Positions 5-58,220 of a DNA stretch of 64,000 nucleotides are shown piece after piece; the first letter of the stretch is position 1; each line of letters opens with the position of its first letter. This DNA is from an uncultured Thermoplasmata archaeon. Lineage in GTDB: Archaea > Thermoplasmatota > Thermoplasmata > JAGHBH01. The notes under the pieces are model-generated. The model ran no database searches and had not been told where the DNA came from. It saw nothing but the letters and a program-made list of their open reading frames with translations. The position numbers and the translations under genes are program-made. Location: NCBI GenBank assembly GCA_964601625.1, contig CAZROC010000001.1, forward strand, positions 46,348 to 110,347. Reading direction: 5' to 3'.

Positions 5-637
5 GTGATAATACCTCTGGGCGGAGGCGGCGGTATAACCCTCTCCCAGATAGTCCGCTATGGCATAACACCCGTGTATATCATGGTGGTGGCAAACCTG
101 GTCAACATGCACTCGGGATTCAACGGCCTCCAGAGCGGTGTTTCCCTCATAGTTCTCATTTCTCTCTTTTTAAAAGAGTGGCTTTATGGGGACATGGACG
201 ACATGCTCACAGCCGCCGCAATAACAGGCGGTCTGGCAGGATTCTGGTGGTACAACCGGTACCCGGCCAGGTTCTTTGAGGGAAACATAGGGAGCATGGC
301 CATAGGAGCCACTATAGGAGGGATCATAGTCACAAAACACCTCTATTTCACAGGGTTCGTCATGCTGATACCGCACACCATCAACTTTTTGATGTACGTT
401 TACTGGCGCTTTAAACGATGGACACTCGTCAGGCAGGGGCGAGAAGTGGGACCATACCACCACCAGATAAAGTTCGGAAAAATAAGAGACGACGGGACAC
501 TGGACGTCCCCAACCGGCTGACCCTCAAATGGTTCATACCCTTCCACAGGCCCACAACCGAGCCACAGGCGGTCAGGTATATGTACATTCTCAGCGCAAT
601 CTTCTGCTTTGCCGGAATAATAATGCCATATTATTGA
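5..637 (+). CDS. Polyprenyl-phosphate N-acetylhexosamine-1-phosphate transferase (GT4 MraY/WecA/Alg7-AglH family); 5' end cut by window edge
   Basis: Hydrophobic multi-TM ORF with a NLVNMHSGFNGLQSG-type motif typical of the MraY/WecA/GPT family; it lies next to the Alg13/Alg14 homologs. Confidence 0.65.
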   Translation: MIIPLGGGGGITLSQIVRYGITPVYIMVVANLVNMHSGFNGLQSGVSLIVLISLFLKEWLYGDMDDMLTAAAITGGLAGFWWYNRYPARFFEGNIGSMAIGATIGGIIVTKHLYFTGFVMLIPHTINFLMYVYWRFKRWTLVRQGREVGPYHHQIKFGKIRDDGTLDVPNRLTLKWFIPFHRPTTEPQAVRYMYILSAIFCFAGIIMPYY

Positions 638-1167
638 TCGATCTCTTCACGTAGTCGGACTCCCAGGCGCTTCTCTATCTCATCCCGGATAAAACACTCC
701 GGAGACACGTACTCTCTAAACTCTTTCTGTAGGGCCCGGTTTATGGCATCCTCAAGATCTTTAACGTCCGGACACCATACGAGATATCCCATCTCTTCCA
801 GTTTGAGCGGTAGCTCTTCCTGCCGGTTTTTTATTTCTACCAGGCCGCGGCTTTCTGTTACCACTTTTATTTTATCCCGCTTTAGCAGGACCTTCAGGCG
901 GGGGTTGGTGACGGCCACGATCTTTTTTTTCATGCTTAAAAGAGTGAAAAGTGTGCCGGCAGCGGCATGGGTCACCACCAGATCCGCCTCTCTGTAGTAT
1001 TCATCAAGGGATGGAGCATAACGAAAGTATTCCAGGTGGTGAGGGATATACCGCCCGCTGCCTATCTGCGCCACGACCACGTCTTTTATTTTCCCGGACC
1101 CCTTTAAAAGGTCCATGGCTTCTATGAGCTCATCAAAATATGTGGTACCCACGGTAACAAAGATCAT
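631..1167 (-). CDS. Alg13-like glycosyltransferase subunit (Glyco_tran_28_C; UDP-GlcNAc transferase catalytic half)
   Basis: VFVTVGTTYFDELI matches the Alg13/MurG-C N-terminus. The start was moved to the internal ATG at 1167, which overlaps the upstream Alg14 stop as ATGA; the ORF-track start at 1224 would overlap Alg14 by 58 nt. Confidence 0.7.
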   Translation of the reverse strand: MIFVTVGTTYFDELIEAMDLLKGSGKIKDVVVAQIGSGRYIPHHLEYFRYAPSLDEYYREADLVVTHAAAGTLFTLLSMKKKIVAVTNPRLKVLLKRDKIKVVTESRGLVEIKNRQEELPLKLEEMGYLVWCPDVKDLEDAINRALQKEFREYVSPECFIRDEIEKRLGVRLREEIDQ

Positions 1168-1718
1168 CACGCAAGCCTCCCCGCGTAGATGGCCCTTGGA
1201 AATCGTTTCTTCATCTCCGGCCACTGGACAAAAAAGAGATCCGCTATACGATAAACGATCCGTCCGGTCAGGCTCGGCAGATACACTCTCTGCATGCTCT
1301 CAACAAAAACCGTTTTTGAGCCAAAAATTTTTCCAGCTATAAAAATAGGGACCGTTATATCCTTTCCAACACTCACGATGATGTCCGGCTTTTCTGAGGC
1401 TACCGCCACCAGCGACGCAAAAAGAGAAAAAATAGACCTGAAAAGAAATGTGAACGGGTCGTCCCATGTACGCCCGGGCGGGGGAATATAGATTTCTCTC
1501 CCGGGAAAGGGCTCTTTATGGGGGGAAAGCGAATCCCCCTTTATCATAACATATACATAATCAGCATCATCTCCAAGGTGTCTGACCAGAAGAGATGTCT
1601 CCGTTGTGTGGCCTCCGCCAGCGAAGACCGCCATAATCTTCAATTTTCTCCCAGGACGTCCACTGATCCGGGTTTTTTTCCCTTTTCTTCCGCCAGTTTT
1701 CGTCTTCTCTACATACAT
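1167..1718 (-). CDS. Alg14-like protein (membrane-anchor/acceptor-binding subunit of the Alg13/14 UDP-GlcNAc transferase)
   Basis: IMAVFAGGGHTTE is the Alg14-family G-G-G-H-T signature. Start placed at the internal ATG 1718, which has an AAAGGTG Shine-Dalgarno about 5 nt upstream; the longer ORF (to 1808) would overlap the radical SAM gene. Confidence 0.7.
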   Translation of the reverse strand: MYVEKTKTGGRKGKKTRISGRPGRKLKIMAVFAGGGHTTETSLLVRHLGDDADYVYVMIKGDSLSPHKEPFPGREIYIPPPGRTWDDPFTFLFRSIFSLFASLVAVASEKPDIIVSVGKDITVPIFIAGKIFGSKTVFVESMQRVYLPSLTGRIVYRIADLFFVQWPEMKKRFPRAIYAGRLA

Positions 1719-1728
1719 CGGGACACCT

Positions 1729-3188
1729 TTACTGTTTTTCTTTTCCCGCTGTTCGTATAACGTTGACCAGAGAAACCATGAACTCAAATATGTTCGGGGC
1801 ATATCCAAGCATGAACTGTCTGGCCCGCACCAGGTACACCATGTGATGAAATATTATTTTCGGACGCAGATAAAATTCCAGCATGGCCCTTTTCTGCCAC
1901 CCTATCAACTCCTCCCGGGAGATGTCTCCAACCTCTACAACAGCGTTCCCCCACCGCATGTATTCTTTCCAGTTGTTGGTTACAGCACGTATGCCATCCC
2001 CTTTCATAGCCATATCGTACAGTACCGACCCAGGGTACGGTGTTGCGATATTAAAAAAAGCTGCATCAAGGTCAAGATTTTTTGCGAAATCTATAGTTTC
2101 ACGAATCGTCTTCCTGGTCTCATAAGGAAGGCCGATTATGAACGACCCCCTTGTCTCTATTCCGAACTCTTTTGCGAGCCTGAAAGCCCTCCGATAGGCG
2201 TCCAGCGTGGTTTTTTTGCCGATTCTCTCAAGCATCTCCCCATTGCCCGTTTCAACTCCCATACTAAGTTGAACCAGGCCCGCCCTTTTCATAGCAGCCA
2301 GCACCTCTCTGTCAATCGTGTCTGCCCTTGCCAGACAGTACCAGTCAGACAGTACCAGTGAATGTCCAGACCCCTTTCAACGATCATATTGCTTATCTGT
2401 ATGGTCCTCTTCTTGGAAAATGTGAAGGTGTCGTCGGCGAAGACCACGCCCCTGACACCATATCTCCTGACAGCCTCTTCCAGCTCGTTAACAACATATT
2501 CCGGAGAATGAGGACGGAGGGGGGCCGGGTCCTTTGAGCGATAGCAGAAGATACACCTGTACGGGCAGCCACGGCTCGTCTGGACCATCGTGCTCCTGAC
2601 CAGCCCTTCGCCGGGGACTGGCATCTTGTAATTTTCTGGGTCAACCAGATGGCGGGCGGGGAAAGGAATTTCGTCAACATTCATTATCGGTGGGCGTGGC
2701 CGGGTCAAAACGATTCTCCTATCTTTTCTGAAACCAATCCCATCTATCGTTTCGTATTCGCCCCCGGACTCCAGAACACGAACCAGCTCAGACAGTGTGA
2801 CCTCCCCCTCCCCCCTGACCACAAAGTCTATCCAGGGACTCTCTTTCAACGTCTCCGCGGGCAGAGCAGAAGGATGAAAACCGCCCGCAATGGTGACTGT
2901 CTCTCCAGAAGACTCCTTCACCCGTCTGAGAAACTCTGCCACCGTGGGCATCTCTGGGGTCGTCGCTCCCGCACCCACAATATCCGGCCTGAAAGACAGG
3001 GTTTTTTCAACAGCCCTTTCAAGTGTGAGACCCTCTGCTTCGGCGTCCACTATGTGGACGGTGTGACCTCCCCTTTCAAGCACCGAAGCGAGATAAAGGA
3101 GTCCCAGTGGAGGAAGAACGATTTTCCTGCGACCGAGTTTAAAACGGCGATAAACGCCAGCATCAGGTCTTACCAGCACAACATTCAT
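1729..3188 (-). pseudogene. B12-binding radical SAM protein; frame interrupted by a 14-bp tandem duplication (it appears as ORFs 2289..3188 and 1729..2304)
   Basis: The N-terminal ORF has a B12-binding-like region followed by SRGCPYRCIFC (CxxxCxxC). The C-terminal ORF continues the radical SAM fold (AAMKRAGLVQLSMGVETGN). Removing one copy of cagacagtaccagt (2332-2359) gives the continuous reading ...HWYCLARADTIDREVLAAMKRAGL.... Confidence 0.7.
2332..2359. repeat. Perfect 14-bp tandem duplication (cagacagtaccagt x2) inside the radical SAM gene
   Basis: Read directly: 2332-2345 is identical to 2346-2359. The unit length is not a multiple of 3, so it shifts the frame. Confidence 0.9.
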
Positions 3189-3304
3189 CTTTACTGTCCT
3201 CTCTTCTAGTGTACACTGTACATCATTTCCTCTCTTTTAAAGCCTTATTTTGTATAAAACCCTAACGTCAGGAAAAAACTTTAAAGGACTCAACATCTCC
3301 TCCT

Positions 3305-4111
3305 TTGATAAAAATGGACAGAGATTTCACATTCGCTGTATACCAGAAAATACTGGACACGCTTGTTGAAACAGGATACACCTTTGAAACGGTAGCAGAA
3401 GCGCTGGAAAACGAAAACAGGGGTACAGCCGATGGGGAAACAGGGAAAAAAATATGTATTATCAGACACGACGTGGACCACTCCCCAAAAAAAGCCCTGA
3501 AAATGGCCCTCTTAGAAAAACAAAAAAACATCCACGCCACCTACTATTTCAGGTTCTTAAAAAACATCTACCAGCCAGACACAATGAAAAAAATAGAAGA
3601 AATGGGACACGAGGTAGGGTACCACTATGAAACATTGTGCAAAAAGAAAGGCGACAAAGACCAGGCGTGGGCCCTTTTCCTTGAAGAACTCGCAGATATG
3701 AGAAAACACGTTGACATAAAAACCGCATGCATGCACGGGAGCCCCATGTGCAAATACAACAACCTTGACATCTGGCAGGAACACAAACCCGAAGAAGCAG
3801 GCCTCCTCGGCGAAGCATATCTATCTTTTGACTTCTCAAAGTGGTTTTATTTTTCAGACACCGGAAGGAGATGGGACTCAAAATATAGTGTTCGGGACGG
3901 TGTCACTAATGGAAAAAATACGGATGTAATTAGTAGTTTTCAACTGATTAGATTTATAAAGAGAGAGAAACCTGATAAGTTATATATAACTGCACATCCA
4001 TCCAAATGGGCACATAATATGAGTGAGTGGTTTATAATTCTAGCCAATCATATGGCTAAAAACCCCATAAAGTTGATTATAAAGAAGATGTGCTCAAAAA
4101 ACAAGTGCTAA
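3305..4111 (+). CDS. Polysaccharide deacetylase-like protein (divergent CE4-like); paralog of 17366..18232
   Basis: IIRHDVDHS...ATYYF... is shared with the ORF at 17366..18232 (LGIRHDVDHSL...TTYF). The 3' third of the gene is strongly AT-rich. Confidence 0.5.
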   Translation: MIKMDRDFTFAVYQKILDTLVETGYTFETVAEALENENRGTADGETGKKICIIRHDVDHSPKKALKMALLEKQKNIHATYYFRFLKNIYQPDTMKKIEEMGHEVGYHYETLCKKKGDKDQAWALFLEELADMRKHVDIKTACMHGSPMCKYNNLDIWQEHKPEEAGLLGEAYLSFDFSKWFYFSDTGRRWDSKYSVRDGVTNGKNTDVISSFQLIRFIKREKPDKLYITAHPSKWAHNMSEWFIILANHMAKNPIKLIIKKMCSKNKC

Positions 4112-36222: not shown

Positions 36223-39165
36223 TCAGCCCTGTTTTCCCTCGTGGTTGGGCTCGTAGGGGTTGAAAGCCGGGTCGCCGTGGAGGACGAACTCCTCAAAGGT
36301 GTCGCACACCGTGCCGCCGTTGTCGCTGCCGCCTTCGTGCTCTATGTACCTGTTCTTGGCATCCATGAGAGCAAAGCCGACGCTGGTGTTGCCGTAAACC
36401 CAGCCCTCTGTCATGCCGCCGTCTTTGTTGTAAATGTATCCTGTGAGATCAGCGTAAATGTACAGTGCGAGAAGGTCGCCCAGGCTCTCGCCGGAACTCT
36501 CGTCAGGTATGGGCACCAGGCTACCCCAGGACTCTCTGGTAGCGCCTATATAAGCGTTCATCCCCGCGTGCAGGAACGCCTGTGAGAGAGCGTTTCTGCC
36601 CGGAATCCCGTCTATCCTGCCGGTCACACATGAAGAGCCAAAGATGACACTGGGACCAAACGTCATGTCTTTGACATGTGTCACATCAAAAGCTCCGCCG
36701 CCATAGGTGGGCTGTGTTATGCCTGCCATGCCCTCCTGGGCCGTGGGCACGTACCAGTAATAGAAACCGTGTGCACAGAAAAAGATGAAATTGGCGCTTT
36801 CGTAAAAAGGCTGTGAATACTGTCTCCTGCTCATCTGGTTCTGCAGGTTGTACGGTTTCTTGTTCGTGCTCATACCTGCCGCCTCGTACATCGCGGCCAG
36901 TTTTGTAGTTGTGGGATATGCACTGTCAATGGGCGGTTCAGAGCCAACAGTGGTTATGGCACTATCTTTCCAGAAAGGGGCAAGGTGTCCACTTTCCATC
37001 GGATTTTCGGTGTTCTTCGGACCACGGTAGTTTTCTATTATACGATGATAGAACACGTTTCTGGCTATGAGGGCGCTGACGTCCTGGGCGTCCCATCCGT
37101 CCACACGTCCCACCGCCAGCTCAAACGAGGCATCTTCTCCGGTGACACTGTATGGGGGATCGTCAAGGTCTGCGTCAACGTCCATGTAGCAGATATCGCT
37201 TGGAATCCCGAAACCCTCGGTGGCGTCTCCCTGGCCGTTGCTTGGATAGAAGTACATCGGGACCATGTTGGTGTCGGCTATTATTCCCACATACATGACC
37301 GTCTCGGGGTCCTGGGCCAGCTGGGCATAGTATTCCGCGAGTGCCGTCGGATCTGGTTCCATTCCAGCGATCTTAGCCAGCAGGCGATTGAGCTGTTTTT
37401 TTACCTCTTTGACCTCCTCGTTGGCGTCCCAAAGCGCCTCGGGGTTGGCGGCGGGAACACCGCACCCCGAACACCCTATGTAACCGGGACTGTACATCTC
37501 AAAGTCAGGTCTGGCCAGCACAACACCCTTGTGGTACGCCGCCAGATACGGGGCCATGCTGGAGAGACCGAACATCAGCGGATAGTTTGTGTCCTCCAGT
37601 TCCTGCACAGTTATGTCAACTGTGAAAGGCGCCGACGTGTCGGGGTCCGTGGGGAGTTTCCCCAGCAGCTGTATGATGTGCTCTGGTTGCTCCTCGTTGT
37701 AGAACGGGAGCTCTATGTAAAAGTGAGCCCAGAGAGGTTTGCTGTGGGGGTCCCTGGGATTGGCTCTGATGTAGTCATATCCCGGAGAGCCGCCGAAAAA
37801 CTGTAGCTCGTCGCTTTCGGTGGAAGTGTCAAGCACGCTGTCGTTGTTTCTGTCAATCCCTATAAACACGTATATTCTTTCCCCGGAGCCGTCGGCGTTG
37901 TGCTCAACGTTGTCTCTCAGAGGGCCATAGCTCCACGTCGGGCCAGTGGCCTCTGACACGTCCATCTTCACGTCTATTTTCACGTTCGCATATTTGTAGG
38001 GGATTGTGAAGTTGAACGCTGGTCCGTCGTTGCCCTCTGGCGCTGCGCCGGGATAAGCACGCGCGGACGAGTCGTGGATTATGCCCTCAAAGTGAAACTT
38101 TAACTCCTGCGGTTCCCCATCAACAACCTTCACCCTGGGAGGATAGACATCCATGGGGTTGGCCAGGGCTATGTAATTTATGTCGCCGCCCACACGCTCA
38201 CGTATCACCTTTATGATGGCGTCCTCTATCTCCTCATAACTCTTAAAATGCAGTGCTTTTCCGAAGCCGCCTATGTCCCCGCAGACTATTGAGTATTTGA
38301 CCTTCAGCGAAGACAGGATGTCTGCCACGTGGGCGTCCACTCCGCCGTCAACGACTATAACAGGTATGCTCAGATATGATGCCAGGGGGACCGCATTAAC
38401 CGCTTCCTCGTATCCTTTCTCGTCATCGTTGACAAGTACGACGGCGTCCGTGTAGTTCCAGAAATGAACAGCCACGTCCAGAGACACTTCTTCCGGCGTG
38501 CCAGAAAAAGGCGGAAGAACAAGCTCTCCCGGGAGCTCCGTATAAAGCGGGTCTCCGAGCACTATCAGAGATGCGTTTGTCGGGTCATACATGTTGAGGA
38601 AATGGCCGATGGCAGACGACCCGGATGTGTAGGGATAACGGTCTTCTTTTCCCTGGTAGACGAGCAATGGATGGAACGTGGGGGTGGACCCCGTGTAATA
38701 TGCACCAAGGGGCGTGCCTATCAGAGCGTACATGGGAGAAGAATCCGAGGCGATGAAAGCCACGTCTCCGGGGTCTTTGAACTGGGACTCTATCCTCAAA
38801 AGCTCGTCAACACTCGCACTCCCTGTCTCGTACCCTGTAACGGTCGGGCCACGCATAGAAACAGCGACCCAGAGGACCGTTGCAAGAAACAGAAGAGCTA
38901 TCACGCCGGCGAGTATCTTTTTGGTCCGGGCGTCAGAAAAATCTGGTTTTTTGGACGGCCTAAAGGACGGTTTCGCAGGGGGGCTCGCTTTAGGTTTTGA
39001 AAAATCCGGTTTCTCAGCCCCGGGACCAGCAACATCGCTTTCCTGGGCAGCCTGGGCAGACCCACTTTTTGGCTCCGGTTGCATTTGCTCTGCTGTTGGA
39101 GTCTCTGCGGTCTCCGCATGGACGTTCTCAGGATTTTCGGGAGCAGTTTTTTTGTCCTCTGTCAT
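36223..39165 (-). CDS. Large membrane-anchored extracellular protein with a C-terminal clan-CD (C25/gingipain-like) cysteine peptidase-like domain
   Basis: N-terminal ~100-aa low-complexity cytoplasmic tail, one TM (ILAGVIALLFLATVLWVAV), then a ~850-aa ectodomain. Candidate His/Cys dyad: FIFFCAHGFYYWY and VIFGSSCVTG, plus a VGRVDG...YHR region like C25 N-terminal domains. Start taken at ATG 39165 after GAGGTGGTG. Confidence 0.4.
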   Translation of the reverse strand: MTEDKKTAPENPENVHAETAETPTAEQMQPEPKSGSAQAAQESDVAGPGAEKPDFSKPKASPPAKPSFRPSKKPDFSDARTKKILAGVIALLFLATVLWVAVSMRGPTVTGYETGSASVDELLRIESQFKDPGDVAFIASDSSPMYALIGTPLGAYYTGSTPTFHPLLVYQGKEDRYPYTSGSSAIGHFLNMYDPTNASLIVLGDPLYTELPGELVLPPFSGTPEEVSLDVAVHFWNYTDAVVLVNDDEKGYEEAVNAVPLASYLSIPVIVVDGGVDAHVADILSSLKVKYSIVCGDIGGFGKALHFKSYEEIEDAIIKVIRERVGGDINYIALANPMDVYPPRVKVVDGEPQELKFHFEGIIHDSSARAYPGAAPEGNDGPAFNFTIPYKYANVKIDVKMDVSEATGPTWSYGPLRDNVEHNADGSGERIYVFIGIDRNNDSVLDTSTESDELQFFGGSPGYDYIRANPRDPHSKPLWAHFYIELPFYNEEQPEHIIQLLGKLPTDPDTSAPFTVDITVQELEDTNYPLMFGLSSMAPYLAAYHKGVVLARPDFEMYSPGYIGCSGCGVPAANPEALWDANEEVKEVKKQLNRLLAKIAGMEPDPTALAEYYAQLAQDPETVMYVGIIADTNMVPMYFYPSNGQGDATEGFGIPSDICYMDVDADLDDPPYSVTGEDASFELAVGRVDGWDAQDVSALIARNVFYHRIIENYRGPKNTENPMESGHLAPFWKDSAITTVGSEPPIDSAYPTTTKLAAMYEAAGMSTNKKPYNLQNQMSRRQYSQPFYESANFIFFCAHGFYYWYVPTAQEGMAGITQPTYGGGAFDVTHVKDMTFGPSVIFGSSCVTGRIDGIPGRNALSQAFLHAGMNAYIGATRESWGSLVPIPDESSGESLGDLLALYIYADLTGYIYNKDGGMTEGWVYGNTSVGFALMDAKNRYIEHEGGSDNGGTVCDTFEEFVLHGDPAFNPYEPNHEGKQG

Positions 39166-39206
39166 CAACACCACCTCAATTATAGCACAGAACCAGACAG
39201 GTCGGA

Positions 39207-39393
39207 TGTGCCTATTAACCTTATGTGCTTATTAACCTTTTTTCCTATAAAACTCCACGGGAGACACCATATATATTGTTTTTGGTATAGAAGAGATATG
39301 AAGGGATAGGATAGTATGGATAGTATGAAAGGATATATGCCTGTGGATATGTGCCAGAGGGATAGGGAATATGCCCGGGGAATATGCCCGGGG
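39207..39393. repeat. Cluster of short direct/tandem repeats in the 5' region of the C25-like gene
   Basis: tgtgc(c/t)tattaacctt at 39207-39222 and 39224-39239. gatagtatg x2 at 39310-39327 with another gatag at 39305. aatatgcccgggg x2 at 39368-39393. Additional ggatat/gatag units at 39331-39365. Confidence 0.6.
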
Positions 39394-39410
39394 CACACAA
39401 AGTCGGAACA

Positions 39411-40457
39411 TCAGAACACCACGAGCAGGTAAACGAAGAAAACATAGCCAGCTATGAGCACTGGAGCGAAATACCTCCGCATCGGCTCTCTGGCGGGAGT
39501 CAAAAGGGGGAAAGCGGAGACAACCAGCGCGTATGGCACGAAAATGTAAACCACAGACCAGGGCACAGGGATGGGCCTCAAAAGAGACGCAAAGCCCAGA
39601 ACAGCGAGGATGTTCATAAGGTTGCTGCCTATCACATTTCCGACGGTTATCCCGTGTTTTTTCTTTATGCCCGCAACAACAGACGTGGTTATCTCAGGGA
39701 GCGACGTCCCCAACGCCACAACGGTTGAGCCTATGAAAAGATCGCTCACTCCAAAAGCGTAAGAGACACCGATAGCCCCCCTTACCAGCAGGTCAGCCCC
39801 AAAAACGACCACCAGACCAAAAAAGAGGGTCAGGGCCACATAAAAGGCGACAGGCTTCTTTTTTCCGCTCTTCTTACCATTCTTACCAGATTCCCCTTTG
39901 TCAACCCTCGCGCTCTCCCGCTCCGGAGAGGGGCGCTCCGAACGCTCCGAAGAACCCTTTCCACCCCCCGGACCCTCGCCCTCCAGCTCTTCGCTTCTGT
40001 CCACATCTTTTCTCCTGTAAACAAGAACCAAAAAAAGGATATAGGAGACGAAAAAAACCCCGCCCTCAACACGACCAAGAACCCGGCCCGTGTACAGAAA
40101 CAGCCACAGGGCTCCGGTTGCACTCAAAAGCAAAAGCGTGTCAAACCGGGTACGAGAGCCGGGCAATATGGGATAAAAAAACAGTGGCAGGCCGATGGCC
40201 AGACATACGTTAGCCACGTTGCTCCCGATCACATTTCCCACCGCTATTCCCCCCACACCTGTCAGAGAGGCTATAGAAGACACGGCCATCTCGGGCAAAG
40301 ACGTGGCGAACGCCACCAGGCTCACACCGATAACGTACTGGGAGACACCTGCCCTCCTGGCGACCACAACGGCGCTGTCAACGAAAAGGTCCGCCCCCTT
40401 AACGAGCAAAAAAAAACCGACTAGGACGAGCAACACGTCCACAGAGACAGAGTCCAA
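39411..40457 (-). CDS. Ca2+/Na+ antiporter (CaCA family, YrbG/NCX-like)
   Basis: Two alpha-repeat signatures (GNVIGSNVANVCLAIG and GNVIGSNLMNILAVLG) separated by a charged cytoplasmic loop; ~10 TM helices. Confidence 0.8.
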   Translation of the reverse strand: MDSVSVDVLLVLVGFFLLVKGADLFVDSAVVVARRAGVSQYVIGVSLVAFATSLPEMAVSSIASLTGVGGIAVGNVIGSNVANVCLAIGLPLFFYPILPGSRTRFDTLLLLSATGALWLFLYTGRVLGRVEGGVFFVSYILFLVLVYRRKDVDRSEELEGEGPGGGKGSSERSERPSPERESARVDKGESGKNGKKSGKKKPVAFYVALTLFFGLVVVFGADLLVRGAIGVSYAFGVSDLFIGSTVVALGTSLPEITTSVVAGIKKKHGITVGNVIGSNLMNILAVLGFASLLRPIPVPWSVVYIFVPYALVVSAFPLLTPAREPMRRYFAPVLIAGYVFFVYLLVVF

Positions 40458-50418: not shown

Positions 50419-50457
50419 ACCCCGGAATGTTCAACCAGTTCATCTCACATGTTCATC

Positions 50458-50625
50458 TCACATATAGCTCTCAAACTCTTCCTGGATGTCTATCATGACC
50501 TGTTCCAGGACCTCTTCAAGGGACTCGCTCCGGTATTCTCTCAGACCGCCGAGGTCGCTCTGAATCTTTGCGACAAACGTGCTGTTGTCTCTCAGAAATT
50601 CCACGCTGCACAGGGGCTCTTCCAT
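50458..50625 (-). CDS. Small acidic protein (55 aa), hypothetical
   Basis: The internal ATG is preceded by a strong Shine-Dalgarno (AAAAGGAGGTATTGGAT-ATG) and a ~55-nt polypurine leader; the longer ORF-track version (107 aa) has a basic low-complexity N-terminus. Confidence 0.3.
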   Translation of the reverse strand: MEEPLCSVEFLRDNSTFVAKIQSDLGGLREYRSESLEEVLEQVMIDIQEEFESYM

Positions 50626-50889
50626 ATCCAATACCTCCTTTTCTCTTTTCTTTTTCCTTCTTCTACATCTCTTTTTCCTTTTTCCATCGCTCTCTTCCGG
50701 CTCTTTCAGGGGTAAAAAGGTGGTGTATTTAACCTTTACCGATAGCGTTTGCTCCCGGTTTAGGCGTTTGTTACAGATCACAGCAAAAAACAGACAGAAT
50801 TGTATGCAGCAATGAGCCGGCGCCGTGCCGGTGTGCGTTCGTCGGGCGCATGAAAACTCTTATATCCTCTCTTATTGTGGGCTGGTTGA

Positions 50890-52164: not shown

Positions 52165-54012
52165 TTGTGTGAAAAAAAGAGCACGTCTACCAGCCACGCC
52201 GGAATAATTTACAACCCCTTCGGCCACCTCCAGGAAGCTATAAAAGAAAACGTCCTCCTTGCTGTCGGAGAGACCACCGGCGGCGACATCGGGTGGGACG
52301 CAACGGTGGAGACCCCCCCGCAGGAAATGGGAGACCTGGCCGTCCCCGTGTTCTCACTGTCCAGGTTCCTCAAAAAGTCTCCCCGGGACATAGCGGAAGA
52401 GATAGCAGAGAAAACCGCCATTAAAATGAGAGAAAAAGGGTTACTTGGGGAGGTAATAAGTGAGATAAAACCCGTGGGTGGTTATATAAACTTCAGAGTC
52501 AAGGGCGACTGGCTTGCATATGTCACCCTCCGGGCCATATCCGTTCTGGGAGAAAGGTACGGGACTGCCGGACGTACAAAAGATGGCGGGGGGGGACAGA
52601 GGGTTGTCCTGGAGCACACCAGCGCCAACCCGACAGACGACCTCCACGTGGGCCGGGCCAGGAACCCCATAATCGGAGACACTCTCGCCAGGGTTCTCCG
52701 CCACTATGGAAATCTTGTGGAGACCCAGTACTATGTTGATGACATGGGCAAACAGGCGGTTTTGCTGGCCTACGGAGAATATCTCTGGGAAAAGCTGGGG
52801 GACGAGGAGAAAAAAGGCCATCTTGGGCCCTACCAGTACGCTGTCTCCGTCCTGGAAAAAGACCCTGGTGCCAGAGAAGAAGTGGAAAAATGGGTCAGAG
52901 CCATTGAACACGGTACCCCCCTGGTGGTTGGTGGGAAAGACGTGGCAGAGAGGGTGGGGGAGAGCTGTAAAAGAGTGCTTGAAGAAAAGATACTTGAAAC
53001 GCTCAAAACCGCTAATATAAAAGTTGATTCTCTGGTTTATGAATCCTCTTTTGTCAAAGATGGCAGCGTCAAAAAAGTGATTGAACGCCTCCAAAAACTC
53101 CCGCAGGCACAGCAGGACGCCACAGGGGCATGGTACATAGACATGGCACCCTTCGGTGTCAGGGGCAGAGACACAAAGTTCTATTTCACACGCAGCGACG
53201 GCACCAGCCTGTACGCCACCCGGGACATAGCATACCACATCTGGAAACTGGAGAGATATGATAGAGCGATAAATGTCCTGGGCGAAGACCACCGGCTTGA
53301 GGCAAAACAGGTCGCTGTGGCCCTCCAACTCCTGGGATATAAAAAACTGCCAGAGGTGGTCTTTTACGCTTTTGTCGGGCTCCCGGGCGGAAGGATGTCA
53401 ACCAGACGCGGCCAGGTCGTGTATTTCAGAGATCTATTGGAGGAGGCCGTTGAAAGGGCGCTGGCAGAGGTAAAAAGGAGACGCACGGACCTGGACATAA
53501 ACAAACAGGTGGAGATAGCAAGGGCCGTTGGAATAGGCGCCGTGCGGTACAACATAATACGTGTCCAGCCGGAAAAAAAGATGGTCTTCAGATGGGAAGA
53601 CGCTCTGAACTTTGAGGGAGAAAGCGCCCCTTTTATCCAGTACTCCCATGCCAGGGCGTGTAGCATCATGCGAAAGGCGAAAGAGGATGGAGCGGTGGGA
53701 GACGTTATAGATGAGGACATGCACACATATGCGGGCCTGCTGTCGCACCCGTCCGAGAGACGCCTGATAAAAGACCTGGCATATTTCCCCTCTGCCATAT
53801 CAAGGGTCGCTCATGAAAAAAGACCACACCACCTCGCTGACATCACCTACGCCGTGGCAAAGGATTTCAACCAGTTTTACAGGGACTGCCCCGTCCTGTC
53901 ATCCCCTGAAAAGAATCTGAGAGAAGCCAGGTTGCTGCTTGTCCTCTCCACGAAGACAGTTCTGGCAACCGGGCTGAGACTGCTTGGAATAGAAGCCCCA
54001 GAGGAAATGTGA
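52165..54012 (+). CDS. argS: Arginyl-tRNA synthetase
   Basis: HTSANPTDDLHVGRARNPIIGD is the class-I HIGH-type motif of ArgRS; the C-terminal DALR anticodon-binding region is present. The start appears to be TTG at 52165 (no in-frame ATG for 55 codons). Confidence 0.9.
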   Translation: MCEKKSTSTSHAGIIYNPFGHLQEAIKENVLLAVGETTGGDIGWDATVETPPQEMGDLAVPVFSLSRFLKKSPRDIAEEIAEKTAIKMREKGLLGEVISEIKPVGGYINFRVKGDWLAYVTLRAISVLGERYGTAGRTKDGGGGQRVVLEHTSANPTDDLHVGRARNPIIGDTLARVLRHYGNLVETQYYVDDMGKQAVLLAYGEYLWEKLGDEEKKGHLGPYQYAVSVLEKDPGAREEVEKWVRAIEHGTPLVVGGKDVAERVGESCKRVLEEKILETLKTANIKVDSLVYESSFVKDGSVKKVIERLQKLPQAQQDATGAWYIDMAPFGVRGRDTKFYFTRSDGTSLYATRDIAYHIWKLERYDRAINVLGEDHRLEAKQVAVALQLLGYKKLPEVVFYAFVGLPGGRMSTRRGQVVYFRDLLEEAVERALAEVKRRRTDLDINKQVEIARAVGIGAVRYNIIRVQPEKKMVFRWEDALNFEGESAPFIQYSHARACSIMRKAKEDGAVGDVIDEDMHTYAGLLSHPSERRLIKDLAYFPSAISRVAHEKRPHHLADITYAVAKDFNQFYRDCPVLSSPEKNLREARLLLVLSTKTVLATGLRLLGIEAPEEM

Positions 54013-54128
54013 CGCACCCGCTGTTATCCAAGAATATGAGAAAAACGGCGAATGTAAAGACGATAATGAAAAGTTTATATCAGAGCAAGGGTATGCTATG
54101 CTTTGCCACACGCAAGGGAGGAGAACAT

Positions 54129-57100
54129 ATGCGAGTTAAAAAAACCGCCTTAAGGGGTTTCACGAAAAAATCTGTTTCTATGGGGGTTCTCTTTTTTGTC
54201 GTGTCCACTGGTTTTTACGGGCTTTTTTACACCTGTGAAAAAATCACCGGAACCACCGTGGGAGAGGACGTGGGAGAGCAGCCATTCGCCTCCGTAACAC
54301 CCAATCCGGACAACGCGGACATCAACGACATATACACTTTTTCCTGGGACCCGGAGGTGGCCATAGCCGCCTGTTCCGGTGGACACATATACCTCCTCCA
54401 TATACCAACCGAAACATGGTTTAACTATTCCTATACTGAGAGCGCCCAGAATTTTTACTCGGCAGGTGTGGCATATTTTCTGGGATTGGTGGTGGGCGGT
54501 GACCTAAACTCAGAAGGAAAAAACCTCTACTTTTTGAACGGAGACACAAACGGTTTTAGAGCACTGCCAAACAGTATAGGTACTGGCATAACAGACCTGG
54601 CCGGTTACACCAATTTCATAGCGTCAACGGGGACAGACGTATACAAATACGAGTGGGACTCGGGCAGGATAATACCAGCAGGAGACCACGCCCTTCCAAC
54701 AGAGGCGCCGGTAGCGGTGAGTTTGTCCAACGGAGACGCTTTTGTCTATGGCGGTGGACTGGAGGAAGGCTCAGACGAGCTCAACAGGGTGTGGATATAC
54801 AACCACACGCTCATGACATGGCAGCAAAAGGGACAGATGGACCCAGGCAGGATGTGGGCGGCAGCAGTCCACCTGCCAGACAACAGAATCGCTGTTATTG
54901 GGGGGACAAACAAAACAAAGGGGGTGTTGGGTGACATCCTTCTCTATGACCCCACAACGGAGACATATACCACGGGAGCGAATATGTCTGAAAAAAGAAT
55001 GCAACACCAGGCGGTTTTGTTGAGAAACGGGACTATTTTCGTATTCGGAGGATATGATGGAAATAACGCCCTGAGCACAGGAGAGATATACGACCCTGCG
55101 GCAGACAAATGGTACACCATCCCCCCTCTCCCCGGAGACCCCAGAACCCTGTTTTGCATGGAACTGCTCCCGGATGGAAACGTTTTGGTGACCGGAGGAG
55201 AAAACGATTCTGGAACGCCACTCAACGACAGCTGGGTATACAACACCGCGTCCAACGCATGGGAAGGACCATATTATATGAACGAGGCCCGGAGAGCAGC
55301 GGATTCTGCGGTGCTTTCCAACGGGACTGTTCTCATCGCCGGAGGAATAAACGAGACGCTTGTTAGCACGAATACCGCTGAGCTCTTTGACCCCCACACC
55401 AGAAACTGGACGTACGTCCACCCCATGGCATATCCACGTGCTTTCCACCGCCTCGTTTCATTGTATGGAGGAACGGTGCTGGCCATCGGTGGAGAAAACA
55501 ATTCGGGCACCAATAGATATCTGGTTGAACACACAGAAGAATACAGCGAAGGACACTGGTCAGTCAATGGCGATGAGTGGAGCGGAGAGGCCTTTGCTAC
55601 CGCCTTTGTGTGCGATAGAAAGGTACTGATCGTCGGTGGAGTCAATTACTCAGGCAGCGCTGTTGGAACCGTGCATGATGCCATGTACGACAGGGGATAT
55701 GGAAAGATGTTCTCCGCCCAGCCATACTATGGGTGGGGGGATACGATAACCGATGTTGAAACAGACTGGGCAAATGGCATATATTACATTCTCAACGTTG
55801 ACAGCACAAACGGAACCTCTACCCTCTATGCAATGAGCCCTGAGGGCACAGAGCCCTATTACGTTGACAGCTATCCGAGGACTTTTCACAATCTAGCCGT
55901 TAACCCAAAGAGCGGCAGCATACTCCTACAAGGGAACAACGGGTATATGCTGTATCTCAACGTTACGGGAACCGTCTATGCAGACGCTCTGGATAGGATA
56001 CCAATCACAGGCGCCAGGCCAACGGCCCGTGAGAAATTTTCAATGGAAAGCACCGACGGAGGGGCCATCCTTTTCGGAGGGCGGAACACATCCGTGGGCT
56101 ATCTTGACGACACATGGGTCTGGATTCCTGACTCAGACATGTGGATAAATATAACCCCCACACTAGCTGTCTCACCGCCGCCCAGAGAGGGAGGAGCCGT
56201 CACGTTTATTTCTTCAACCGATTCCTTCCTTTTGTTCGGAGGAAAAAACAGTGGCGGATACCTTGATGACACATGGATTTTCAACACAACAAGCATGCAG
56301 TGGGAGCAGGTCACCTCCGCCCTTTTCCCGCCTGCAAGAGAAGGAGCCATGATGGCCTATTTCCCACCAGACAACTCTGTGTACCTATTCGGCGGAGAAG
56401 GGACCGATGGAAAAAAACAGGACATGTGGAGGTTTGACCCTGAAACAAAAGAGTGGAACAAGATAACAGGCATAACCTTCCCTCCGGGCAGAGCGTGGGG
56501 TGCCATGGAATACGACTCTTACAACAGCACCATCGTACTTTTTGGAGGGGAGGGGGAGACAGGAGCACTCAACGATATATGGGTGTTTGATGGGAGCACG
56601 TGGTCGGAAAGAACCCCCTCTGGGGATATACCGTGTCCGAGATATGGCGTGGCTTCCATATATGATCGCGACAACAACAGAATGATAATATACGGTGGAA
56701 CAGATGGGACAAGCACGTACAACGAAACATACGCCTATTACGGAGACACTAACACCTGGGAGAACATCACAGCGATAAACGCCCCCCGAATCAGGTTCGC
56801 CTCTATTGGCAGCGGATGGAACACATTTTATGTATTCGGCGGCTCAGACGAAAATAACAACCCAAAGAACACGGTGTATAGACACGTTACCCGCGTTTAT
56901 CCCATCATCACAGATAGAACCGAAATAGACGGGTTGCCCTCATCTGCTGTTATAAACGACATGGCATGGAACAGAGACGGTACAAAGTGCATGCTGGTGG
57001 GAGACGGCGGCGCCATCTACAGCTATGTGCCAGGACACTGGCGTGTAGCAAATCACACCGATCCCGCCGTAACCAGCTCAAACCTGCTATGCGTTGACTA

Positions 57101-58220
57101 CAAACCACAAAGCAGCCCGGGGCTGTTTTTGATAGGGGGACGTTTTGGAACCACCCTCAAAGCATACGACACACAGGTAACATCAGAGGTACGAGCAAGT
57201 GTTTACCGCCCACATGTCAACAGCGTGGAGATCCTATCGTCACACAACACGGGAACAGAAGCAAACGACGTCTCTGTTTTAAACAGGAGAATAGATGTTG
57301 ATTCCGGAGACAGGACCACATCGTACTGGATAAAAATAAACGTGAGCGACAGAAACGGTCTCGGCGACCTCAAAAACCTCACACTGCGACTCTGGGACGA
57401 TTTCGGTAACACGGGTACAACGAGCGTTTTCCCCGGCGGAACCATGAACAACACCAAAGTGGAACTGTTCTGCGACATAAGCGGTGGACACGTGTGGAGC
57501 ATTAACAACGACAGCGGATACGGAGAATTTGAGATATGGGACACCGACGTGGTCTCAATAAATTCCACCACAGAGATAATCTATGTTGAACTATACTTTG
57601 GCCCCCAGGTCCGGGCCACAAATGGAACATTCACAGAAGCGGCCGGCACCACGTCTCCAGATCAGAACGATAAAACAGCCGCTCTAAACGACCCCTACAC
57701 GTGGGACATAGAAGCAGTCCTCTACGACAGCAGTGAAAACTCGGACAGAGGCTACGACGAGTTCGGAATATACTCCTTTGTCGGGCTCTACCAGTCTGGC
57801 CTGCCAGGAGACCAAAGCGGGAGCGGCCCCCCAGGAGCGCCGATGGTGTTATCCCCGGCGGGCAACGTGACGTTCTACGCCAACTGCCCATACCGCCTCA
57901 ATGTGAGCGTCACAGATCTCACACCCCTTGGGTCTTCCCCGGACATAATACCCGCCTCTGCGATAGGAATAAAAGGCGGAGACCTCAGCGGGACCGGCTA
58001 CCTCCAGACCAGCAACTTCACAGGGGCCAACATACCACAGGTCCTCCTCGGAACCCCCACGGGATTCGTAAAACCGAACGACTATGGCACTGAGACAAAT
58101 ACCAGCAGCGCCAGAAACGGAGCAGCGAGCGTGGGAACTGTCGTGTGGGTGTGCCACACACCAAACGTGGCCGAGGACACATATGTGGGAACCGCCACGT
58201 GGAGCCTATACCGGGCATAA
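54129..58220 (+). CDS. Large secreted/membrane-anchored Kelch-repeat (beta-propeller) protein with C-terminal beta-rich domains; very rich in N-x-S/T sequons
   Basis: N-terminal signal/anchor (MGVLFFVVSTGFYGLFYTC). More than 15 Kelch-like repeats (for example AAAVHLPDNRIAVIGGTN, HQAVLLRNGTIFVFGGYDG, MMAYFPPDNSVYLFGGEG). Start at ATG 54129, 5 nt after AGGGAGGAG. About 31 N-x-S/T sequons by manual count. Confidence 0.7.
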   Translation: MRVKKTALRGFTKKSVSMGVLFFVVSTGFYGLFYTCEKITGTTVGEDVGEQPFASVTPNPDNADINDIYTFSWDPEVAIAACSGGHIYLLHIPTETWFNYSYTESAQNFYSAGVAYFLGLVVGGDLNSEGKNLYFLNGDTNGFRALPNSIGTGITDLAGYTNFIASTGTDVYKYEWDSGRIIPAGDHALPTEAPVAVSLSNGDAFVYGGGLEEGSDELNRVWIYNHTLMTWQQKGQMDPGRMWAAAVHLPDNRIAVIGGTNKTKGVLGDILLYDPTTETYTTGANMSEKRMQHQAVLLRNGTIFVFGGYDGNNALSTGEIYDPAADKWYTIPPLPGDPRTLFCMELLPDGNVLVTGGENDSGTPLNDSWVYNTASNAWEGPYYMNEARRAADSAVLSNGTVLIAGGINETLVSTNTAELFDPHTRNWTYVHPMAYPRAFHRLVSLYGGTVLAIGGENNSGTNRYLVEHTEEYSEGHWSVNGDEWSGEAFATAFVCDRKVLIVGGVNYSGSAVGTVHDAMYDRGYGKMFSAQPYYGWGDTITDVETDWANGIYYILNVDSTNGTSTLYAMSPEGTEPYYVDSYPRTFHNLAVNPKSGSILLQGNNGYMLYLNVTGTVYADALDRIPITGARPTAREKFSMESTDGGAILFGGRNTSVGYLDDTWVWIPDSDMWINITPTLAVSPPPREGGAVTFISSTDSFLLFGGKNSGGYLDDTWIFNTTSMQWEQVTSALFPPAREGAMMAYFPPDNSVYLFGGEGTDGKKQDMWRFDPETKEWNKITGITFPPGRAWGAMEYDSYNSTIVLFGGEGETGALNDIWVFDGSTWSERTPSGDIPCPRYGVASIYDRDNNRMIIYGGTDGTSTYNETYAYYGDTNTWENITAINAPRIRFASIGSGWNTFYVFGGSDENNNPKNTVYRHVTRVYPIITDRTEIDGLPSSAVINDMAWNRDGTKCMLVGDGGAIYSYVPGHWRVANHTDPAVTSSNLLCVDYKPQSSPGLFLIGGRFGTTLKAYDTQVTSEVRASVYRPHVNSVEILSSHNTGTEANDVSVLNRRIDVDSGDRTTSYWIKINVSDRNGLGDLKNLTLRLWDDFGNTGTTSVFPGGTMNNTKVELFCDISGGHVWSINNDSGYGEFEIWDTDVVSINSTTEIIYVELYFGPQVRATNGTFTEAAGTTSPDQNDKTAALNDPYTWDIEAVLYDSSENSDRGYDEFGIYSFVGLYQSGLPGDQSGSGPPGAPMVLSPAGNVTFYANCPYRLNVSVTDLTPLGSSPDIIPASAIGIKGGDLSGTGYLQTSNFTGANIPQVLLGTPTGFVKPNDYGTETNTSSARNGAASVGTVVWVCHTPNVAEDTYVGTATWSLYRA

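Follow-up and report, generated by a model that had tools for sequence, protein, structure and literature searches.

It is already known that surface-polysaccharide genes can be turned on and off by duplications, as in Streptococcus pneumoniae, where duplication-mediated ON/OFF variation is attributed to cap3A, cap8E/wchA and tts (Waite et al. 2001, 2003, as cited in PMC4022640), and tandem duplications are a recognised spontaneous class in the mutational spectra of Sulfolobus acidocaldarius (PMC7785828, PMC3139894). In this study, we analysed a stretch of 64,000 nucleotides (nt) from an uncultured Thermoplasmata archaeon (assembly GCA_964601625.1, contig CAZROC010000001.1, positions 46,348 to 110,347), referred to as the window, in which a perfect 14-bp tandem duplication lies inside a minus-strand gene for a radical S-adenosylmethionine (SAM) enzyme with a B12-binding domain. 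As in the pneumococcal capsule, an exact tandem duplication in a presumed surface-polysaccharide open reading frame (ORF) shifts the frame, and loss of one copy restores the wild type. Unlike in the pneumococcus, where both the ON and OFF forms were seen and the frequencies of switching measured in culture, only the OFF allele is found here, in an uncultured archaeon, and the affected gene encodes a putative tailoring radical SAM protein instead of a main-pathway glycosyltransferase or dehydrogenase.

The locus also resembles the simple-sequence-repeat contingency loci, in which a frameshift turns a surface-modifying gene on or off, but it contains no multi-copy tract. Its anatomy is the same as that of the short tandem duplications in the S. 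acidocaldarius pyrE spectra, where they are a routine loss-of-function class; however, those were selected laboratory mutants, whereas here it is the consensus allele of a natural population. We consider it likely, with a probability of roughly 0.8, that this is a genuine and evolutionarily recent 14-bp tandem duplication which left the gene with a null or badly impaired allele that dominates, or has become fixed in, a clonal population. The mutation itself is a fresh instance of a well-known, ordinary kind.

The Repeat and the Interrupted Gene

The unit CAGACAGTACCAGT is present twice on the plus strand, at 2332..2345 and 2346..2359 (on the coding strand it reads ACTGGTACTGTCTG), with the second copy 100% identical to the first and directly abutting it, head to tail, in the context CCCTTGC CAGACAGTACCAGT CAGACAGTACCAGT GAATGTCC. 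Tandem Repeats Finder returned a period of 14, 2.0 copies and 100% matches, and in a separate repeat search of the window the same two copies formed family D2, both at 100%, which confirms the perfect repeat reported at this place by the first-pass annotation. The period-14 identity extends over 28 bases and not one more; neither a partial third copy nor microhomology in the flanks is present. From first-order Markov simulations of the window (100 runs), 0.03 perfect tandem duplications per window would be expected at a period of at least 12, and none with a period of 14 was obtained; therefore, chance is excluded as an explanation of the repeat.

The two copies together occupy nt 830-857 of the gene, and the additional 14 nt, since this length is not a multiple of three, shift the coding sequence into the +2 frame, with the result that the gene is divided into two ORFs, as had been claimed. 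The N-terminal ORF (2289..3188, minus strand) has 299 amino acids (aa), of which 281 are native residues that comprise the B12-binding domain, the CxxxCxxC motif at C208/C212/C215 and the barrel strands β1-β3, followed by an out-of-frame tail of 18 aa (TGTVWQGQTRLTERCWLL) and a stop. The C-terminal ORF (1729..2292, minus strand) has 187 aa when read from native Met295, or 191 aa from an alternative GTG at 2304, and covers the second half of helix α3 and the barrel strands β4-β6, along with the helical domain at the C-terminus. The two-copy frame reads ATT CAC TGG TAC TGT CTG, then ACT GGT ACT GTC TGG CAA, and ends with CTA TGA. This TGA overlaps the ATG of Met295 in an ATGA at 2289..2292 (minus strand), and 9 nt upstream of the ATG there is a GAGGTG (2302..2307, minus strand), which could act in the manner of a Shine-Dalgarno (SD) sequence and is a chance by-product of R-E-V codons.

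When one copy is deleted in silico, a single ORF of 481 aa containing GLDIHWYCLARADTIDREVLAAMKRAGLVQLSMGVETGN is obtained, in agreement with the sequence given in the first-pass annotation. In this repaired protein, the Pfam domain B12-binding (PF02310) is found at residues 24-135 (E = 9.2e-22) and Radical_SAM (PF04055) at residues 203-364, matching positions 2-166 of the 166 in the profile in one stretch (E = 5.6e-30), while C208, C212 and C215, the CxxxCxxC cysteines for the [4Fe-4S] cluster of radical SAM proteins, are invariant in the alignment. At the repaired junction, DIHWYCLARADTIDRE agrees with the consensus of the family, LDIxWxCLARADTxDxE, in which W278 is nearly invariant and R283 invariant. 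Homologs are colinear across the site, with no insertion in 14 and later in 59 of them (alignments of 15 and 60 sequences), and the sequence of the AprD4 crystal structure aligns without a break through the junction (WWCETRIDRLDEEVVAAL). The unbroken Pfam match and the colinear homologs thus bear out the view that removal of one copy gives back a well-formed frame.

Over its 1,446 bp the gene has no further stop or frameshift, and all of its invariant residues are intact; because of this the event would be recent relative to sequence divergence. The closest ortholog, P0001, from the Thermoplasmata metagenome-assembled genome (MAG) GCA_021161085.1, is intact, with 483 aa and 67% identity, and its locus has the same order of genes as the window, i.e., radical SAM, Alg14, Alg13 and then a convergent GT4 gene. 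A recent inactivating duplication, one of the alternatives considered in the first-pass annotation, is therefore supported by the lack of any other lesion, by the intact invariant residues and by an ortholog that is intact in the same synteny. An additional ORF of 251 aa on the plus strand (1606-2361), opposite the radical SAM gene and ending just past the duplication, is a shadow ORF and should not be annotated.

Predicted Effect on the Enzyme

The structural consequences were read from an AlphaFold model of the ortholog P0001, which was built from 60 sequences and has a predicted local distance difference test (pLDDT) value of 93. The model has six core strands (196-203, 248-251, 278-283, 301-309, 341-348 and 372-377), the junction coincides with the C-terminal end of strand 278-283, the third of them, and the restart Met is within the next helix (290-298). 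Neither fragment contains native residues 282-294, among which is the invariant Arg283 that closes β3. According to the model, the cut is in the middle of the (β/α)6 catalytic barrel and not at a domain boundary, so that the activity of the enzyme would be expected to be lost in the two-copy allele, all the more with Arg283 missing.

To hypothesize, by adding 14 nt to the first gene of a radical SAM-Alg14-Alg13 operon within a glycosylation island, the duplication would let translation pass β3 as far as native residue 281, read 18 wrong residues and stop. Ribosomes may restart at the overlapping Met295 ATG with the help of the SD-like GAGGTG and release a C-terminal fragment, and such reinitiation would keep the downstream Alg14 and Alg13 translated.

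It seems extremely unlikely that an active enzyme is still made from this allele, either by a ribosome hop between identical codons (e.g., CUG to CUG, 14 nt apart) or by assembly of the two fragments. Although any tandem duplication supplies matched take-off and landing codons, no stop codon follows the take-off codon here, the sequence from the duplication to the stop lacks both an X XXY YYZ heptamer and a homopolymer, local folding is at the level of shuffled sequences (z ~ -0.5), and the orthologs are unsplit at the site, which means that no conserved recoding site exists. Similarly, the ATGA overlap and the GAGGTG would permit a C-terminal fragment, and several gene-calling pipelines annotate each of the two fragments, but the cut runs through the barrel core with the loss of the invariant Arg283, and not along a domain boundary.

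A programmed -1 frameshift or a bypass of the gene-60 type was rejected, as neither a slippery site nor a stimulatory structure was found and the orthologs are unsplit at the site. A hairpin that might promote slippage was also rejected as evidence: the small stem TGTCTG...CAGACA (2319-2337) lies right beside the unit but folds no more stably than shuffled sequences (z = -0.5 to -0.75). A scan of 600-3400 for sigma-70 promoters and terminators gave nothing above shuffle expectation, and this model does not apply to an archaeon.

The Two-Copy Allele in Public Assemblies

The two-copy sequence is common to five public assemblies, from at least two SRA runs and three assembly pipelines, all of which are represented by consensus contigs only. 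Both copies are present in the ENA contig k141_338890 of ERZ27248007 (128.7 kb; 100% identical to the window over 6188 bp) and in the Logan contigs SRR35108318_56853 (5.1 kb; 100% over 4463 bp) and SRR7051160_450195 (1.9 kb; 100% over 1824 bp), while the 299-aa and 187-aa ORFs are also listed in NCBI and JGI, on a contig of 291,150 bp. That the repeat is an artefact of sequencing, library or assembly, and that the organism in fact has one copy and an intact gene, is very unlikely in our opinion. The gene is otherwise perfect, and some of the contigs, which are all 100% identical, possibly derive from one library; however, at 28 bp the repeat is well below the length of Illumina reads, and also below the k = 141 of the ENA contig, so no assembler needs to guess or invent it. 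The repeat also recurs in the Logan assemblies of SRR7051160 and SRR35108318, which have very different accession numbers, as well as in ENA and NCBI/JGI, and the other short duplications of the window (discussed below) are consistent with selection, a pattern that random artefacts would not give. The artefact, which had been left as an alternative in the first-pass annotation, is therefore disfavoured by the same two copies appearing across runs and assemblers. The idea of a genome rich in frameshifts or errors was likewise not supported, as the window is ~92% coding, with long ORFs throughout, and no other split gene was noticed.

Several genes mark the window as archaeal (XPD-type helicase, LonB-like ATPase, eRF1 and ArgRS), and for ArgRS (52165-54012) the best non-self match is 54-56% identical, in Thermoplasmata/Thermoplasmatota MAGs. 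A 41.5-kb contig of IMG 3300022188 (Ga0190313) was considered as a second strain and rejected, since its DNA matches the window at 100% identity; Ga0190313-prefixed contigs are described as Guaymas Basin hydrothermal vent metagenomes (PMC8762117). The organism is a deep-branching Thermoplasmatota archaeon of Guaymas Basin hydrothermal sediment that is seen only as one clonal genotype, and this is why no same-species version with a single copy could be found. Every public copy of the locus that was compared is 100% identical in DNA, and the population appears strictly clonal. From the two-copy allele being the consensus in every public assembly of the organism, we infer that it is fixed or dominant in this clonal population.

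The search for the other allele covered both DNA and protein. A DNA pattern of both flanks separated by a gap of 12-42 nt had 0 matches in genome contigs and 0 in JGI metagenome contigs, and the exact repaired 481-aa protein and a three-copy truncated variant were absent among ~15 billion proteins. No fragments with the repaired junction were found, and a junction-spanning query of 124 aa matched only the window's own C-terminal ORF. When the repaired protein was used to search for related loci, there were none in genome contigs and only relatives of 30-32% identity in metagenome contigs. The comparison with related strains or MAGs, proposed earlier as a check of the duplication, thus gave no single-copy allele and no same-species relatives, while the 67% identical ortholog proved to be intact. 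A compensating paralog was rejected within the window, where tblastn of the repaired protein matched only the split gene itself.

These data also bear on a reversible ON/OFF switch, in which the 14-bp copy would be gained and lost at high frequency by slippage and the population would be a mixture of expressing and non-expressing cells, which we regard as unlikely. Loss of one copy would restore the wild-type gene exactly, in a gene of a glycosylation cluster; replication slippage between the two 14-mers may bring about such a reversion, but exact revertibility is a property of any tandem duplication and not evidence of a switch. A gene in a surface-glycan cluster is a typical target of contingency loci, with a precedent in the pneumococcal capsule (Waite et al. 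2001 and 2003 as cited in PMC4022640), but two copies of a complex 14-mer do not make a hypermutable simple-sequence tract. The absence of other damage in the gene, expected if it were periodically used, is equally well explained by recency. Additionally, only the two-copy allele is present in the five assemblies, as assembled consensus sequences, and the repaired 481-aa protein, the three-copy variant, the junction-spanning fragments and the gapped-flank DNA pattern are all unmatched. The heritable on/off switching that was suggested in the first-pass annotation is conceivable in principle but improbable, and nothing was found that supports it. We find it just as improbable that the duplication is one state of a switch toggling radical SAM glycan tailoring, e.g., under virus pressure.

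A further point in favour of a switch comes from a second lineage of the radical SAM family, where a different indel frameshift is common to two non-identical strains. In L016 (~1600-1670; ENA ERZ23495048 MARL16-1 scaffold_2256) and L017 (ENA ERZ9811491 NODE_20969), the radical SAM gene is split into a B12-binding ORF of 203 aa and a radical SAM ORF of 273 aa, with an overlap of 4 nt. The cause is A5 in the place of A6 (GAT ATA AAA AGT as against ATA AAA AAG TAC) at DIK/KYTHP, where P0005 has DIKKYTHP. The two sequences are 99.7% identical, with 9 single-nucleotide polymorphisms in 3143 bp, and they have the frameshift in common; with a -1 slip on AAA, the conserved sequence would be read again. 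This A-run frameshift is closer to the simple-sequence-repeat type than the 14-bp duplication, and it could stem either from recurrent toggling or merely from relaxed selection, the gene being accessory.

In the end, we return to the recent inactivating duplication, against which the following points have to be counted. The loss of function is deduced from structure and conservation, and with the stop-start overlap and the SD-like motif both fragments could be made, so their complementation is conceivable. Without flanking microhomology, slippage on a short repeat provides no obvious origin for the duplication. The five assemblies are 100% identical in DNA and may not be fully independent, as some may re-assemble the same library; the evidence consists of consensus contigs, in which a minority single-copy allele would not show. 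As for the selective reason for the loss, an altered surface glycan or escape from viruses may be suggested.

Tandem Duplications in the Window

The 14-bp repeat is one of several perfect tandem duplications in the window, where 10 with a period of at least 8 were counted against 1.16 expected (~9-fold over) and 4 with a period of at least 12 against 0.03 expected. Those of 9 and 12 bp inside ORFs are in frame (e.g., KLLEKLLE), two 8-bp repeats are inside ORFs that stay open, with a number near chance for period 8, and one 9-bp and both 13-bp duplications are located between genes or just past a stop codon. The only one among them that breaks a frame is the 14-bp duplication. Such a distribution fits a real mutational process that recurs and is filtered by selection, and does not fit artefacts.

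Some details were noted in passing. A perfect 13-bp duplication (GTTCATCTCACAT, two copies at 50438-50463) includes the stop codon of a minus-strand ORF of 107 aa (50458-50781) and is silent, as the protein ends with EFESYM and the stop whether one or two copies are present. Seven short tandem duplications with units of 9-17 bp are gathered within 1 kb (39042-39951), namely at 39042-39059, 39206-39239, 39290-39308, 39309-39327, 39365-39393, 39871-39888 and 39934-39951; 4 of the 7 are in a 236-bp intergenic/promoter region upstream of a Peptidase_C25 gene, and the rest belong to the two ORFs on either side, where they encode in-frame peptide repeats. The Peptidase_C25 (gingipain-family) protein has 983 aa (36223-39174, minus strand) and is probably secreted or on the surface, as is probably a protein of 1403 aa (54009-58220, plus strand) with many Kelch/β-propeller repeats. 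Both proteins are unusual in archaea.

Enzyme Family and Glycan Context

The repaired protein stays far below all NCBIfam equivalog cut-offs (BchE, 258 vs. 481 bits; HpnJ, 228 vs. 578 bits), and since no equivalog threshold is reached, its sequence places it in a subfamily of B12-domain radical SAM enzymes that is uncharacterised. Among relatives with a solved structure, AprD4 (PDB 6FD2) comes closest, with E = 1.4e-37 by sequence and a template modelling (TM) score of 0.75-0.79 by fold, and both domains of the fold model have counterparts in AprD4, OxsB and TsrM. AprD4 is a sugar-acting radical SAM 1,2-diol dehydratase. In the repaired protein and its ortholog, as in AprD4 and the class B enzymes (OxsB, TsrM, TokK and MgmA), an N-terminal Rossmann domain of the B12-binding type is followed by a CxxxCxxC partial triosephosphate isomerase (TIM) barrel; identity to AprD4 is only ~25%.

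The radical SAM gene is the first gene of a tight operon within a glycosylation island of ~35 kb. In the same operon, an Alg14-like gene (1167..1718, minus strand) starts 10 nt after the radical SAM stop, and the last gene, Alg13-like with a glycosyltransferase family 28 C-terminal domain (631..1167, minus strand), overlaps Alg14 by 1 nt. The convergent gene (5..637, plus strand) encodes a glycosyl-1-phosphate transferase of the GT4/HPT family (Alg7/MraY-type), which is cut by the start of the window and is present with its full 359 aa on the ENA contig. The island also holds a methyltransferase, GT1-family transferases, a flippase and a UDP-glucose dehydrogenase, and on three other contigs homologs at 47-49% identity are likewise found amid sugar-nucleotide and glycosyltransferase genes. 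The term "glycan-modifying enzyme", used in the first-pass annotation, is a reasonable inference from the gene neighbourhood; the glycan-cluster context was found as described, while the label for the enzyme itself derives from that neighbourhood only.

Next to the transferase, the arrangement of the Alg genes may be noted on its own. A split Alg14/Alg13 (EpsE/EpsF-type) pair adjoins an HPT/GT4 transferase in an archaeon (5-1808 of the window), and the same is seen in GCA_021161085.1 (L006). Archaeal split sequences of this type are described as few and scattered (Lombard 2016, PMC4973528).

Implications

The main bearing of the finding is on annotation, where the ORFs of 299 aa and 187 aa should be treated as one disrupted gene and not as two radical SAM proteins. 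The locus is a candidate for read-level population analysis, and should both alleles turn up among the reads, duplication-based phase variation would gain one of its rare documented cases in Archaea. A mechanism recorded to date in the capsule genes of the pneumococcus would then operate in an archaeon, and the A-run frameshift of L016 and L017 would reflect recurrent toggling of radical SAM function.

With the duplication as a recent inactivating event, the locus would be a clear case, from nature, of a loss-of-function allele that sweeps through or dominates a clonal population at a vent. It is situated in a glycosylation island, and at loci of this kind selection driven by viruses is expected. 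The modification that the radical SAM enzyme would make is then probably missing from the glycan of this population.

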